From positions 14,834-78,833 of the IMG/VR virus record IMGVR_UViG_2974796119_000001: a stretch of 64,000 bases of DNA. One strand, written 5' to 3'. Below, piece by piece: positions 57,426 to 61,339 of the stretch (position 1 is the stretch's first letter; every line of letters starts with the position of its first letter). Source of the DNA: a virus. Its lineage: Duplodnaviria; Caudoviricetes. A program made the position numbers and the translations under genes. A model generated the notes under the pieces. The model saw only the letters and a program-made list of their open reading frames with translations, made no database searches and was not told the DNA's origin.

Positions 57426-57965
57426 ATGACGAAAGCAACCAAAAAAACAGAAGTAAAAAAAGTAATTGAACAATCTAAACCAGGTACTCCAATGCCTGCT
57501 TTTGAAAAATTCACTAGAAAAGGTGTTTCAGAAATGAGGCCTTATGTTTTAGGTGAGGACTTAACCGGTGTTTCAGTATCTAAAGAAGATAACCCTGAAA
57601 AAGATATGGGTATGATAGCTAGAAACCCAAAAAATCATAAAGACCAATGGTATGTAGCTAAAGCTTATTTTGATGAAAACCTACAACCTGAAGAAGTAGA
57701 TGCTTCTAAATTAGCAGAAAAATCAGCAACAGAACCTAATTTTTACGATAGATTATTAATCGAAAAAGAACAGTTAGAAGAAAAAACAGTAGGTCTTAAA
57801 ACTTTTATTGACTCAAATCCTGTTTACGGAAAGTTAGATCAAGTTCAAAAAAACTTAATGCTTATACAGCTCAAATCAATGAAGCAATACCTTGACTGCT
57901 TAGACAGAAGAGAAATGATGTTAAGACCTGCAGTAGAAGAAACCCTGCCAACACAAGAGGATTAG
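57426..57965 (+). CDS. two-domain protein: small beta domain plus crAss001_48-like helical hairpin
   Basis: MIARNPKNHKDQWYV; FYDRLLIEKEQLEEK...QLKSMKQYLDCLDRR. Confidence 0.6.
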   Translation: MTKATKKTEVKKVIEQSKPGTPMPAFEKFTRKGVSEMRPYVLGEDLTGVSVSKEDNPEKDMGMIARNPKNHKDQWYVAKAYFDENLQPEEVDASKLAEKSATEPNFYDRLLIEKEQLEEKTVGLKTFIDSNPVYGKLDQVQKNLMLIQLKSMKQYLDCLDRREMMLRPAVEETLPTQED

Positions 57966-57985
57966 GTTTATTCAAAAAGTTTAAC

Positions 57986-58075
57986 TACATTTGATTAAGC
58001 ATACTTTTTTAAAGTCATTCTTTTTCATAGCAATTTTTTTTTATCCTTTCAGTTAATTCTGGAAGGATTTTTTTA
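57986..58075 (+). ncRNA. candidate small RNA (promoter, U-rich body, terminator)
   Basis: TACATTTG (57986-57993); CTTTTTCATAGC; terminator ATCCTTTCAG/CTGGAAGGAT plus T-run. Confidence 0.55.
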
Positions 58076-58091
58076 TTCAATATAATTGTTA

Positions 58092-58099
58092 TATGTTTG
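58092..58099 (+). promoter_or_regulatory. -7 promoter element of tRNA block 1
   Basis: TATGTTTG. Confidence 0.7.
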
Positions 58100-58103
58100 C
58101 CGT

Positions 58104-58166
58104 ATGAAAACAAAATTATATTCATATAGCTGTTTTAGTTCTTGGTTTAAAAACCGAGCAGGATAA
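58104..58166 (+). CDS. attenuator leader peptide 1 (MKTKLYSYSCFSSWFKNRAG)
   Basis: 10 consecutive Tyr/Ser/Cys/Phe/Trp codons; last codons AGCAGGAT complementary to the terminator 5' arm. Confidence 0.8.
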   Translation: MKTKLYSYSCFSSWFKNRAG

Positions 58167-58191
58167 CTATTTGTAATATTTAAACATATAT

Positions 58192-58226
58192 AAAAAGTCC
58201 TGCTATCATAGTAGGACTTTTTTTTA
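58192..58226 (+). terminator. attenuator terminator 1
   Basis: AAAAAGTCCTGCT-ATCAT-AGTAGGACTTTTT plus T-run, directly before tRNA-Tyr. Confidence 0.85.
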
Positions 58227-58227
58227 T

Positions 58228-58296
58228 GGGAGTAATTCTAAGGAGAAACCGAGATTGTAACCCTCCAAATAGTAAGTTCGATTCTTGCTACTCCCA
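58228..58296 (+). tRNA. tRNA-Tyr(GTA), atypical
   Basis: acceptor GGGAGTA/TACTCCC, T-arm GTAAG-TTCGATT-CTTGC, loop TTGTAAC; 4-nt D-loop, weak anticodon stem, short variable loop. Confidence 0.65.
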
Positions 58297-58303
58297 CAAA
58301 AAC

Positions 58304-58371
58304 ACATCTAAGCCTATGGAGGCAAGCGGATTCCAAACTCGTAGAACAGAGTTCGACTCTTTGTAGATGTG
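58304..58371 (+). tRNA. tRNA-Trp(CCA)
   Basis: acceptor ACATCTA/TAGATGT, loop TTCCAAA, G73; 4-nt D-loop. Confidence 0.75.
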
Positions 58372-58376
58372 CTAAT

Positions 58377-58449
58377 GGTTTTATAGCTCAGTTGGTAGAG
58401 CGTCAGGTTGAAGACCTGAGCGTCATTGGTTCGAATCCAATTAAAACCA
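58377..58449 (+). tRNA. tRNA-Phe(GAA)
   Basis: canonical cloverleaf, TCAGG-TTGAAGA-CCTGA. Confidence 0.95.
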
Positions 58450-58453
58450 CTAT

Positions 58454-58543
58454 AGAAGAATAAGCCGAGTTGGTCTATCGGCAGCGCACTTGAAATGCGT
58501 CAATCCTTAAAAGGGTGTGTGAGTTCGAGTCTCACTTCTTCTG
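58454..58543 (+). tRNA. tRNA-Ser(TGA)
   Basis: long variable arm, GCGCA-CTTGAAA-TGCGT, G73. Confidence 0.95.
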
Positions 58544-58548
58544 CAAAA

Positions 58549-58622
58549 GTTTTCGTAGTCAAGCGGTCCAAGACAGATGATTGCAACCCTGAAGGTCACC
58601 AGTTCGAATCTGGTCGAAAACT
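58549..58622 (+). tRNA. tRNA-Cys(GCA) with disrupted anticodon stem
   Basis: acceptor GTTTTCG/CGAAAAC, U73, loop TTGCAAC; GATGA/CCTGA barely pairs. Confidence 0.65.
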
Positions 58623-58626
58623 CTAT

Positions 58627-58709
58627 AGGAAGGTGGCAGAGTGGTAATGCAGCGTCCTGCTAAGACGTAGAACCGAAAGGTTCCCTGAGTTCGAATCTCA
58701 GTCTTCCTG
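58627..58709 (+). tRNA. tRNA-Ser(GCT)
   Basis: long variable arm, GCGTC-CTGCTAA-GACGT, G73. Confidence 0.95.
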
Positions 58710-58741
58710 CAAATTTTATTTTGCTATCTAATAAAAAAGAT

Positions 58742-58749
58742 TATATTTG
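58742..58749 (+). promoter_or_regulatory. -7 promoter element of tRNA block 2
   Basis: TATATTTG. Confidence 0.75.
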
Positions 58750-58753
58750 CAGT

Positions 58754-58825
58754 ATGAAAACAAATAATTTACATATACAACAAAATAACCTACCGGTATT
58801 CCTGGAAGGATTTCTGTATATGTAA
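58754..58825 (+). CDS. attenuator leader peptide 2 (MKTNNLHIQQNNLPVFLEGFLYM)
   Basis: sensor run AAT AAT TTA CAT ATA CAA CAA AAT AAC CTA CCG; TGGAAGGATTT (58803-58813) complementary to the terminator 5' arm. Confidence 0.8.
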   Translation: MKTNNLHIQQNNLPVFLEGFLYM

Positions 58826-58850
58826 GTGAAACAAAATACGCTTGTCATAC

Positions 58851-58883
58851 AAATCCTTCCAATTAATTTTGGAAGGATTTTTT
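58851..58883 (+). terminator. attenuator terminator 2
   Basis: AAATCCTTCCAA-TTAATT-TTGGAAGGATTT plus T-run. Confidence 0.85.
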
Positions 58884-58927
58884 CATTTCTAGTGGTCAAG
58901 TATAATGTTCAATTCATTTAAAACGAC

Positions 58928-58935
58928 TATATTTG
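58928..58935 (+). promoter_or_regulatory. -7 promoter element of the HNH gene
   Basis: TATATTTG. Confidence 0.65.
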
Positions 58936-58958
58936 TATTGAACATTTATAGTTGAATA

Positions 58959-59465
58959 ATGAAACAAGATATTTTAAGATTAAGAAAAGAAGGTAAAACA
59001 TATACAGAGATACAAAATTCTTTAGGTTGCTCTAGGGGAACAATATCATATCACTGTGGTAAAGGTCAGAAAGAGAAAACAAAAGCCAGAACCATTAAAA
59101 ATCGAAGGAATACTAAAAGTAAAATATTAAGAAAAATAGATTTATTTATAAATAGAAATTCTGATAATAAATTATCATACAGAAAGAGGAGTGAGATACA
59201 CGTGAAAATGTTAAATAAAGTTTTAGACAATCCTATCTGTTATTTAACAGGTAAAGAAATAAATTTACATGAATCAGAATCTTATAATTTAGATCACATA
59301 ATACCATTTAGCAAAGGAGGTGAAAATACTTTAAGTAATATGGGCTTAACAAGTAAAGACGCTAATCATTCTAAAAGTTATTTAACATTTAATGAATATA
59401 TTAACTTATGTAAAGATGTTTTAAACAACAATGGATATAAAGTATCGAAACGAGTAATGGACTAA
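58959..59465 (+). CDS. HNH homing endonuclease with N-terminal HTH, inside the tRNA cluster
   Basis: GKTYTEIQNSLGCSRGTISYH; LDHIIPFSKGGENTLSNM...ANHSK. Confidence 0.9.
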   Translation: MKQDILRLRKEGKTYTEIQNSLGCSRGTISYHCGKGQKEKTKARTIKNRRNTKSKILRKIDLFINRNSDNKLSYRKRSEIHVKMLNKVLDNPICYLTGKEINLHESESYNLDHIIPFSKGGENTLSNMGLTSKDANHSKSYLTFNEYINLCKDVLNNNGYKVSKRVMD

Positions 59466-59525
59466 TTGGTAAGTCGCCTACTTTGGATGTAGGACATCAT
59501 GCAGGTTCGAGTCCTGCTTACTCGA
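59451..59525 (+). tRNA. tRNA-Pro(TGG)
   Basis: acceptor CGAGTAA/TTACTCG, CCTAC-TTTGGAT-GTAGG. Confidence 0.9.
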
Positions 59526-59585
59526 CGAAGTAGATTGTTACTAATTCATAGACTGGGCGAAAAATCAGAGCATAGAATTAGACAT

Positions 59586-59657
59586 TGAGATATGGTGTAA
59601 TTGGTAACACACGTGCTTTTGGCGCACGCATTTTAGGTTCGAGTCCTTGTATCTCAA
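59586..59657 (+). tRNA. tRNA-Gln(TTG)
   Basis: T1-A72, CGTGC-TTTTGGC-GCACG. Confidence 0.9.
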
Positions 59658-59663
59658 CAAAAT

Positions 59664-59737
59664 GGTCTTTTAGCTCAGTTGGTTAGAGCAATCCCCTCAT
59701 AAGGGATAGGTCACAGGTTCGAATCCTGTACAGACCA
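59664..59737 (+). tRNA. tRNA with CAT anticodon, probably Ile2 (lysidine, reads ATA)
   Basis: ATCCC-CTCATAA-GGGAT; no initiator features; leader 2 contains ATA. Confidence 0.8.
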
Positions 59738-59746
59738 CATTAAAAA

Positions 59747-59819
59747 GGGTTATTAGCTCAGTCGGTAGAGCAGGACGCTGTTAACGTCAAGGTCATAGGT
59801 TCGAATCCTTTATAACCCG
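59747..59819 (+). tRNA. tRNA-Asn(GTT)
   Basis: GGACG-CTGTTAA-CGTCA, G73. Confidence 0.93.
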
Positions 59820-59825
59820 CTAAAT

Positions 59826-59899
59826 GCTTCGATGATGGAAATGGCTTACATGATCGGCTTAGACCCGATTTTATACGAGTTCGAATCTCGTTCGAAGTA
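59826..59899 (+). tRNA. tRNA-Leu(TAG) with short variable loop
   Basis: ATCGG-CTTAGAC-CCGAT, 5-nt variable loop TTTAT, A73. Confidence 0.75.
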
Positions 59900-59913
59900 C
59901 TAAAGTTTAGAGC

Positions 59914-59945
59914 AAAAAAAAAGAAGCACGAATCACCATGCTTCT
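59914..59945 (-). terminator. intrinsic terminator of the leftward operon
   Basis: minus strand AGAAGCATG-GTGATT-CGTGCTTCT plus T-run. Confidence 0.85.
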
Positions 59946-60008
59946 AAAACAACCTTAAAAATTACGGTATAATGAAAAAAATACACGCTATATAAGGTTA
60001 CAAATATA
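59914..60008 (-). ncRNA. candidate small RNA on the minus strand
   Basis: TATATTTG (60008-60001) about 80 nt upstream of the terminator, with a U-rich body. Confidence 0.45.
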
Positions 60009-60047
60009 TAGATTTATAAGGGTAGCATCAAATAAAGTTACTAACAC

Positions 60048-60284
60048 CTATATAAACTCAGTATTACAAGTATCACATACGTAACAATCCATTTCTGCAG
60101 CATTAACAATAGTTTTATCATGGTACAGGACACCTTCGGGACAATGAGGACACTTATCACTTGTAAATAGATTAAATAGCTTAGGGAGTCTATTTTTAAT
60201 TAAAGAATTAATTTTTACAATAACAACAGAAAGTAATCCGCATCCTGCGAGTAAAACCAATACTAAGTTTAATGTATCATTCAT
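60048..60284 (-). CDS. membrane-anchored zinc-ribbon protein
   Basis: TM helix plus CPHC...CDTC; start set at ATG 60284, just after the upstream stop. Confidence 0.65.
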   Translation of the reverse strand: MNDTLNLVLVLLAGCGLLSVVIVKINSLIKNRLPKLFNLFTSDKCPHCPEGVLYHDKTIVNAAEMDCYVCDTCNTEFI

Positions 60285-60285
60285 A

Positions 60286-60768
60286 TTATTTATGGTATTT
60301 AGATTTGTTATCAAGAATATCTATTGTAGGTTTTTTAATAACAGGAATATTATTCCATCCTGCTATTCTTCGTTTACCAAAGCTATAACCCTGAGCCTCT
60401 TGGTATTCAACCATGGCCTTATTAATATCTTTTCTATTCTGAGGTGTTAAGTAAGGATTGTCAAACGGACCAAATACACCTTGCTTTTCTGAAATTGATG
60501 TTATATCGTTCCATGCTTTTTCTATATCTTTAAATGATATGTCACGTAAAGGTGTTGGAGATTCTGCAACTGCTTTTTCTAATTGAGCAAATAAACCGCC
60601 AGTACATACAAAGCCATCTTTATCTGTTTCTGTATTTTCGTGGCAAGGTGTTTTAAATACAACAGGTGTTTTATTAATTTTAGCTAGTAAAAAAACTTTA
60701 CCAACACATGAAGGTTTACCAATATGCGCTGCTATTCCTATGTGTTTTAATTTTTTATTTATTGCCAT
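60286..60768 (-). CDS. hypothetical protein with major-capsid-like motifs
   Basis: TGGLFAQLE...I...W and FGKRRI versus capsid TQGLFDNLE...I...W and FGKKRI. Confidence 0.6.
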   Translation of the reverse strand: MAINKKLKHIGIAAHIGKPSCVGKVFLLAKINKTPVVFKTPCHENTETDKDGFVCTGGLFAQLEKAVAESPTPLRDISFKDIEKAWNDITSISEKQGVFGPFDNPYLTPQNRKDINKAMVEYQEAQGYSFGKRRIAGWNNIPVIKKPTIDILDNKSKYHK

Positions 60769-61339
60769 CTTTTAAACATTTAGGTTCAATAGTAAATCCT
60801 TCGGTACAAGTAAACATACACTCTTCATTACAACCTACACATGGTCTTTTATATCCATTAATATAAAATGGACTCATATCAGGTTTAAATACAATCTCAG
60901 GAATAATATCACCTTCAGGAACAACATCATTATAACCTTTACCTGCAGGAACAAGCCAATTAACTTTACCGTAGATTTCAAAATGAAAGACTACCTTTTT
61001 AGGAACCTCTTTTATTAAGCCAAAATCTAAAGCCATTCGGTAATTAGAACTGCTTTTACGCAAACGATCTAACTGTAAACTTATTTCGTTTCGGAACTGC
61101 TCAAGATTAAAAGTAGATTTCCATCTATTGCATCTGGCACAGCTTGGATTATAATTGCTTTCTTCATCAATACCTTTAACAACATTCATTTTAAGGCAAT
61201 CTTCTTCAGTATCATTTCTATACAATGGTTTTATATGGTCCACTTGCATTTTATCATACTCCAGTTTCTTTCCGCAATAAGCACATTGACAACCGTACTT
61301 ATTCCAAACCCTTTTTCTAATTTCTTTTTTATTTGCCAT
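60755..61339 (-). CDS. HNH endonuclease
   Basis: CAYCG...MQVDHIKP...NYNPSCARCNRWK. Confidence 0.9.
   Translation of the reverse strand: MANKKEIRKRVWNKYGCQCAYCGKKLEYDKMQVDHIKPLYRNDTEEDCLKMNVVKGIDEESNYNPSCARCNRWKSTFNLEQFRNEISLQLDRLRKSSSNYRMALDFGLIKEVPKKVVFHFEIYGKVNWLVPAGKGYNDVVPEGDIIPEIVFKPDMSPFYINGYKRPCVGCNEECMFTCTEGFTIEPKCLKDGNK

Follow-up and report, generated by a model that had tools for sequence, protein, structure and literature searches.

Leader peptides that probably gate phage tRNA operons by reading the codons of the encoded tRNAs

Why phages carry transfer RNA (tRNA) genes is a long-standing question, usually answered by compensation for codon usage, loss of host tRNAs or escape from anticodon nucleases. 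To our knowledge, the control of their expression has hardly been addressed. Here we ask how a phage might decide when to transcribe its tRNAs, using a locus in a 64,000-nucleotide (nt) stretch of viral DNA (the window), which spans bases 14834-78833 of the IMG/VR virus record IMGVR_UViG_2974796119_000001, 78.8 kb long and carrying direct terminal repeats. At this locus, where G+C is about 34%, a promoter, a short open reading frame (ORF) and an intrinsic terminator precede six tRNA genes (block 1). The promoter boxes of this phage are of the Bacteroidota type, TAnnTTTG. Judged from sequence and comparison, this unit (cassette 1) is likely to be a ribosome-mediated (leader-peptide) transcription attenuator gating the phage tRNA operon. 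Its parts are as follows; the promoter, leader and terminator all lie where an earlier note, made from the letters of this DNA, had placed them.

58092-58099, plus strand: sigma-A -7 box TATGTTTG (TAnnTTTG), 4 nt upstream of the ATG, a spacing that recurs in the relatives checked
58104-58166, plus strand: leader ORF MKTKLYSYSCFSSWFKNRAG, 20 codons and a stop (ATG at 58104, stop at 58164-58166), with its own start just downstream of the promoter
58119-58148, plus strand: sensor run (region 1), the ten codons TAT TCA TAT AGC TGT TTT AGT TCT TGG TTT, which are leader codons 6-15
58118-58179, plus strand: hairpin 1:2 (anti-antiterminator) of the minimum-energy fold, in which the sensor codons pair with the segment holding GAGCAGGAT
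58156-58165, plus strand: core of region 2, GAGCAGGATA (antiterminator strand), complementary to the terminator 5' arm and overlapping the stop codon
58192-58225, plus strand: intrinsic terminator (regions 3:4), stem AAGTCCTGCTA / TAGTAGGACTT, loop TCA, then eight T; hairpin at 58192-58222, core stem of -13.8 kcal/mol

The first tRNA gene (58228) begins 2 nt past the T-run. This gap leaves no space for a promoter, and the tRNAs must therefore be made by read-through of the terminator only.

All ten codons of the sensor run can be read by the block-1 tRNAs, and both Ser codon boxes are present, which confirms the restriction to the block's five amino acids that had been proposed from the sequence. 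Under the phage's own codon usage, block-readable codons represent 17.7% of codons, the probability of a run of at least ten of them within 19 codons is P = 2.5e-7, and the chance that all five amino acids are represented, the rare Trp and Cys among them, is P = 0.004.

Block 1 was defined with ARAGORN and the Rfam tRNA model (RF00005, cut-off of 29 bits). With default settings ARAGORN misses three of the six genes, and thresholds below about 85% give plainly false calls; calls at relaxed thresholds were kept only if backed by Rfam or by homologues.

58228-58296, plus strand: tRNA-Tyr(GTA)-like, 27.8 bits (just under 29), short variable arm, three of five anticodon-stem pairs
58304-58371, plus strand: tRNA-Trp(CCA) with a small D arm, 25.7 bits (just under 29), ARAGORN call at 90% thresholds
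58377-58450, plus strand: tRNA-Phe(GAA), 73 bits, ARAGORN and Rfam agree
58454-58544, plus strand: tRNA-Ser(TGA), 36.5 bits, ARAGORN and Rfam agree
58549-58622, plus strand: tRNA-Cys(GCA)-like, 42.3 bits, acceptor, D and T arms intact, one of five anticodon-stem pairs
58627-58710, plus strand: tRNA-Ser(GCT), 54 bits, ARAGORN and Rfam agree

All six previously listed genes were thus located, but only three are canonical; the other three (Tyr-like, Trp and Cys-like) are not, and each of these has homologues in the tRNA blocks of related phages.

The window holds a second cassette of the same design, opened by the same promoter-plus-start string TTTGCnGTATGAAAACAAA as cassette 1, and a second tRNA block.

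58742-58885, plus strand: cassette 2, with box TATATTTG, leader MKTNNLHIQQNNLPVFLEGFLYM (58754-58825), antiterminator strand (58802-58814) and terminator (58851-58880)
59451-59900, plus strand: tRNA block 2, Pro-TGG, Gln-TTG, a tRNA with anticodon CAT, Asn-GTT and Leu-TAG, from ARAGORN, Rfam and the cross matrix of leaders and blocks

Block 2 would read nine of the 11 codons of NNLHIQQNNLP, provided that the CAT tRNA reads ATA as an Ile2-type tRNA, which is a candidate assignment. In the cross matrix of the window, the runs of readable codons are 10 and 7 for a leader's own block, versus 1 and 1 for the other block. We conclude that each leader in the window matches only its own tRNA block.

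Relatives were obtained by pattern scans of viral and metagenome contigs, followed by script analysis and an Rfam check. The entry points were the tRNA block of one contig (L178) and the leader itself; the 'phages' collection yielded no close DNA relative of the window region, only matches at the level of tRNAs. The comparison set consists of 12 intact cassettes, two from the window and ten from viral contigs and two cultured phages. The layout of a promoter followed by a short ORF is found again in the 11 cassettes other than cassette 1, and every cassette has an intrinsic terminator between leader and tRNAs, in the form of a G+C-rich hairpin and T-run 20-30 nt past the leader stop. The family comes from phages of marine Flavobacteriia, and its leaders share an MKT(K/N) start, except for blocks 1 and 2 of Cellulophaga phage phi4:1, a cultured and published phage in which three cassettes stand ahead of all of its approximately 25 tRNAs. 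Leaders and blocks compare as follows.

L003: sensor part FNSFWSYSNCSSCNC; block Tyr, Ser, Ser, Asn, Trp, Phe, Cys
L178: sensor part FSFWNYSNCSNCNC; block of the same seven tRNAs as L003
L009: sensor part YSFWSNCSQSCN; block with the same tRNA set as L003
L005: sensor part RLHLEQLEQP; block Pro, Glu, Gln, His, Leu-TAG, Leu-TAA, Arg-ACG
L111: sensor part QSYQFNFNHESN; block Tyr, Asn, Gln, Glu, Phe
L141: sensor part SLYLSFCDSLL; block Tyr, Asp, Phe, Leu-TAA
Maribacter phage Panino (cultured, published): leader annotated as hypothetical protein PANI_CDS0108
phi4:1, block 1: leader QRLHLQELEQP; Pro, Glu, Gln, His, Leu-TAG, Leu-TAA, Arg-ACG
phi4:1, block 2: leader TKTGITVIDKTKGARA; Ala, Lys, Ile, Gly, Met, Asp, Thr, Val, Arg-TCT, Met
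phi4:1, block 3: leader NYCTYNNSNWSFSY; Tyr, Ser, Ser, Asn, Trp, Phe and a Cys-like gene

The leaders of L003, L178 and Panino are rich in F, N, S, W, Y and C, and their blocks encode Tyr, Ser, Ser, Asn, Trp, Phe and Cys. Over the 12 intact cassettes, 132 of 168 codons at leader positions 4-17 match the leader's own block, against 46 expected. Leader codons thus covary with tRNA content among related phages, a check that the earlier note had put forward: shuffling blocks among leaders never reached 132 matches in 50,000 permutations. Among the 720 possible pairings of the six cassettes that differ in their tRNA sets, none scores as well as the true one. The agreement extends to individual codons. 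The Arg codon box tracks the tRNA (CGT/CGC with Arg-ACG, AGA with Arg-TCT), and Asn codons follow the Asn tRNA, standing in the block-1 leader of the relatives and in the block-2 leader of the window.

Could the short ORF instead encode a functional small peptide, for example a Cys-rich one, followed by a leaky gene terminator, with the tRNAs transcribed constitutively by read-through? The Panino leader is annotated as a hypothetical protein, and type-A leaders are Cys-rich and share a CNCGG motif. However, residue order is scrambled between lineages while composition is retained and follows the tRNA set, and very different leaders (RLHLEQLEQP, TKTGITVID) precede, and match, other blocks. The conserved GGAGG/CAGGA segment is moreover the antiterminator strand, which covaries with each terminator. 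This explanation is very unlikely. Insertions and deletions among the leaders of close relatives are multiples of 3. The scrambled order, the kept composition and these indels therefore fit a translated ORF that is selected for its codon content and not for its peptide.

Attenuation also requires that the RNA can switch. In folds of the free RNA, the sensor codons pair with the downstream segment (1:2) and the terminator forms (3:4), with fold z-scores of -4.5 for the whole of leader 1 and -5.8 for leader 2. The predicted pairing between AGCAGGAT (58157-58164) and GTCCTGCT (58197-58204) comprises 8 base pairs including one G-U, with a duplex energy of -13.8 kcal/mol, in agreement with the earlier proposal. 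In cassette 1, the GAGCAGGAT-AGTCCTGCT pairing (-13.8 kcal/mol) was equalled by none of 500 shuffles. Across the 12 cassettes, a strand complementary to the cassette's own terminator 5' arm lies within leader nt 41-85 (about 50-81 overall, 49-69 in most). The sequence of this strand varies by cassette (GAGCAGGAT, CTGGAAGGATTT, GGGAGGG, ACGAAGG, ACAGGATC), as in these pairs of leader strand and terminator 5' arm.

Window, cassette 1: leader strand GAGCAGGAT, terminator 5' arm AGTCCTGCT
Window, cassette 2: leader strand TGGAAGGATTT, terminator 5' arm AAATCCTTCCA
L005: leader strand GGGAGGG, terminator 5' arm CCCTTTC
L009: leader strand ACGAAGG, terminator 5' arm CCTTCGT
phi4:1, block 3: leader strand ACAGGATC, terminator 5' arm GATCCTGT

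The energies of the own pairs in the 12 cassettes sum to -140.9 kcal/mol, versus -99.6 +/- 7.5 kcal/mol for permuted pairs, and none of 20,000 permutations reached the observed sum. These data also bear on the possibility that a short ORF matches the neighbouring tRNAs by chance. Short ORFs are frequent in AT-rich DNA, and whole-leader binomial tests on single cassettes are only moderate (P of about 4e-6 to 0.03). Yet with the run probability of cassette 1 (2.5e-7) and with neither the 50,000 codon-match nor the 20,000 antiterminator-pairing permutations reaching the observed values, a chance match is effectively refuted.

Folds in which the ribosome-covered RNA was masked were obtained for the two window leaders. 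When a ribosome occupies codons 7-13 before the 3' arm has been transcribed, the antiterminator takes up 9-10 of the 11 nt of the terminator 5' arm; when it occupies the stop codon, the antiterminator takes up 0-5 of 11. This folding suggests that control runs in the direction of trp and his, a stall on the sensor codons permitting the antiterminator. The attenuator geometry recognised in the earlier note is supported by the tracking of tRNAs by leaders in 12 cassettes, by the locus-specific complementarity and by these trp-like folds, and all sequence-testable attenuator features are present, save the type of regulated genes. We conclude that the anatomy of the cassette, its codon-tRNA match, the covariation across phages and the locus-specific antiterminator complementarity are established.

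From here on we infer the start of transcription, the translation of the leader, the stall-dependent switch and its physiological trigger. The distance between box and ATG is exactly 4 nt in nearly all cassettes checked, and because of this spacing we place +1 on the A of the ATG. Transcription would start about 5 nt past the -7 box, and the leader messenger RNA (mRNA) is likely leaderless. A ribosome would then translate the 20-codon leader, whose codons 6-15 would be decoded by exactly the six downstream tRNAs. When decoding is fast, the ribosome at the stop codon would cover GAGCAGGAT, or hairpin 1:2 would re-form behind it; the terminator (58192-58225) would fold and the polymerase would halt 2 nt short of the first tRNA. 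When any sensed charged tRNA is scarce, the ribosome would stall on region 1 and leave GAGCAGGAT unpaired, free to bind the emerging 5' arm of the terminator, so that polymerase reads through and the tRNAs are made. The fresh tRNAs would lift the stall, closing a negative-feedback supply circuit.

The biology of a plausible host is compatible with such a device. A study of Flavobacterium psychrophilum places the sigma-A box TAnnTTTG at positions -12 to -5 and reports signs of leader-peptide attenuation ahead of amino-acid operons (PMC9723704). The placement of the flavobacterial box, the existence of some leaderless mRNAs and these signs of attenuation (PMC9723704) make an attenuator plausible in such a host.

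Several observations weigh against the attenuator. Its transcription start is placed from motif spacing, and leaderless mRNAs account for only about 5.5% in F. psychrophilum (PMC9723704). The terminator is favoured at equilibrium in every masked full-length fold, and the switch must therefore be kinetic, as in trp. Two of the six block-1 tRNAs score below the Rfam cut-off and the Cys-like anticodon stem is nearly unpaired, which makes their function putative. Some leader codons have no cognate gene in the block: TTA and CAT in leader 2 of the window, Ser and His codons in L111, and Ser and Cys codons in L141. Finally, the earlier note held that relatives keeping a leader while their tRNA set differs would speak against its reading. 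This was found once: L006 keeps the L178 leader, with a block that is down to Phe and a truncated remnant, beside genes on the opposite strand. Its antiterminator pairing is weakened to the point of being no better than shuffles, and from its sequence L006 looks like a decaying copy. L177 (G005:C1:7400-8700, minus strand) is a decayed cassette: its leader is nearly identical to that of L178, and only tRNA-Phe and a truncated tRNA remnant are left, followed by opposite-strand ORFs. It has a drifted terminator and no longer shows the antiterminator pairing.

If the cassette is an attenuator, which signal does it report? It might sense amino-acid starvation or general translation stress rather than tRNA supply. 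By established attenuation logic, stalling depends on charged tRNA, so that a shortage of Ser, Tyr, Phe, Trp or Cys would also lead to read-through. A shortage of amino acids is not, however, cured by extra tRNA. The sensed and encoded sets coincide even in their codon boxes (Arg CGY versus AGA; Ser TCN and AGY; Leu TTA and CTN), exactly as predicted for a circuit whose output acts on its own input. We therefore consider starvation sensing unlikely.

A second possibility refines the attenuator explanation rather than competing with it. The attenuator may serve as an inducible counter-defence, off until host anticodon nucleases or a phage-induced host shut-off remove a sensed tRNA, whereupon the replacement set is turned on. 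The circuit would respond to the loss of any one sensed tRNA, and the anticodon arms of several block tRNAs are unusual and conserved from phage to phage; such arms could fit the evasion of anticodon-directed nucleases. Against this, each cassette senses five to nine amino acids, a wider range than the targets of any single nuclease, and a nuclease attack would leave the same sequence as supply-demand feedback, codon-usage mismatch or phage-induced loss of host tRNAs. We regard counter-defence as a tentative option, possible and on balance improbable.

The non-canonical tRNAs themselves recur among relatives. Trp homologues in L003 and L009 are called by ARAGORN at default thresholds. The Tyr-like gene has its acceptor and D arms in common with the homologue in L111, the anticodon stem of which is different and better paired. 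The odd Cys anticodon arm is shared by L003, L178 and phi4:1, where the GenBank annotation gives a pseudo-tRNA. The Cys-like genes (58549-58622; L003:1944-2018; L178:1739-1813; L308:4354-4428) keep U33-GCA-A37, but almost none of their anticodon stem can pair. Different phages have conserved the arm, AGATGnTTGCAAnCnTGAAG, and L009 has a canonical stem. Rather than mere decay, the sequence may represent a non-canonical anticodon arm that is conserved.

How does the cassette relate to known regulators? Like the enterobacterial multivalent attenuators (trpL, hisL, pheL, thrL for Thr and Ile, and the ilvGMEDA leader for Ile, Val and Leu), it has a short translated leader rich in regulatory codons, mutually exclusive 1:2, 2:3 and 3:4 pairings, a terminator before the regulated genes, and read-through on stalling. 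Like thrL and ilvL, it covers several amino acids together. The phage leaders differ in covering five to nine amino acids, mostly with one to four codons each and no long homopolymeric runs, and in having a Bacteroidota-type promoter and probably a leaderless mRNA. The main difference lies in the output. Enterobacterial attenuators control biosynthetic enzymes, and the classical scope of the mechanism is amino-acid biosynthesis, transport and aminoacyl-tRNA synthetase genes; here the downstream genes are six tRNAs. As the output consists of the tRNAs that decode the sensor codons, the loop closes on tRNA supply itself. The pheST (pheM) leader likewise attenuates a component of the translation apparatus, but its target is a protein enzyme and its input a single amino acid. 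T-box riboswitches also use a terminator/antiterminator switch to report the status of a specific tRNA; they bind uncharged tRNA directly and without translation, whereas the signal of the phage cassette is the codons of an ORF. Over 57900-60200, Rfam matches with E values up to 1 included no T-box family. The Rfam models Phe_leader (RF01859, 27.9 bits) and Thr_leader (RF00506, 23.1 bits) scored below their 55-bit cut-offs, and the likeness to these leader families is one of architecture only.

The earlier note knew of no attenuator whose output is the cognate tRNA genes. In full-text literature, in which subscription journals and older papers are thinly covered, we likewise found no description of leader-peptide control of tRNA genes. 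Work from the 1980s on the tRNA region of phage T5 is said to mention short ORFs. What is new is that the regulated genes are tRNAs; ribosome-mediated attenuation itself is already known.

The distribution of the cassettes was also considered. In the metagenome pattern scan, L178 was the sole true cassette among the matches listed, and tRNAs after short MKT ORFs were found in 0 of 30 cases in 120 bacterial loci, again among the matches listed; this hints, though only weakly, at a phage-borne MKT family. One candidate leader, L192, was ruled out as the end of a longer ORF. A small Gln/Met/Leu block in Bacteroides phage DAC19 has no evident cassette, and the design is therefore not universal. 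A bacterial match (L397, genome_contigs) has a short ORF, MKTNTHVHHHVTCLQR, behind the same promoter-plus-start string, which resembles a classical His-type leader; MKTTRHFIAITT(R/H)L is also present in Campylobacter concisus. In G001, a phi4:1-like contig (L174, G001:C1:1-2400, minus strand; reverse complement 1036-1170), a 44-codon ORF, MEFIVGVIAGAIGMFLIL..., with a hydrophobic N-terminal half, separates the promoter from the second leader, MMTITGVTAIDRTKGK...; this ORF is absent from the corresponding place in phi4:1.

The blocks group their tRNAs according to the first codon letter (58228-58710 and 59451-59900; L308:697-4428). One type of block covers UNN (Tyr, Trp, Phe, Ser-UCN, Cys) together with AGY and AAY, another covers CNN (Pro, Gln, His, Leu-CUN, Arg-CGN) together with Glu and Leu-UUR, and block 2 of phi4:1 reads GNN and ANN codons. 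This sorting may relate to the classes of modification at position 37.

Cassette 1 is preceded by a gene (57426-57965) and its terminator, which shields the cassette from read-in transcription.

58043-58076, plus strand: intrinsic terminator of the preceding gene, a 10-base-pair stem and then a T-run

The gene upstream of cassette 1 carries a crAss001_48-related domain. An exact-protein look-up of it gave no match, and none of eight viral contigs encoding relatives of this protein has tRNAs near them; the cassettes thus do not travel with the upstream gene.

Cassette 2 has a more complex surrounding. Within 58886-59525, an HNH homing-endonuclease ORF at 58959-59465 (Pfam HNH_4 with an N-terminal helix-turn-helix) separates terminator 2 from tRNA-Pro. 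It has a TATATTTG box of its own at 58928 and a 15-nt overlap with tRNA-Pro. Judged from this arrangement, the promoter box of the HNH gene may circumvent attenuator 2 in this phage. The gene is missing from a 44-kb contig of metagenome run X5, which is near-identical as far as 58896 and has 42 nt in place of 58897-59502; because of this contig we consider the HNH insertion recent. In the same contig, another 78-nt stretch replaces the CAT-anticodon tRNA (59663-59744), and the content of block 2 therefore varies between near-identical phages. A second HNH-domain ORF (Pfam HNH, 27.5 bits) lies at 60755-61339 on the minus strand, just downstream of the tRNA region. Genes of the homing-endonuclease type therefore flank the tRNA locus.

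Because phi4:1 and Panino are in culture with their hosts, the attenuator can be tested directly. The leader offers a way to identify odd, low-scoring phage tRNAs from sequence, and here it backs the assignments of Tyr, Trp and Cys. If our reading is correct, the phage would gauge decoding speed codon by codon and top up only those tRNAs that are scarce, with attenuation logic closed on the translation apparatus itself and the cassette acting as a compact natural multi-input sensor of tRNA availability. If the counter-defence version also holds, the leader would be a live assay of the host tRNA pool, and phage tRNA arrays would be self-regulating, each with a written list of its contents.

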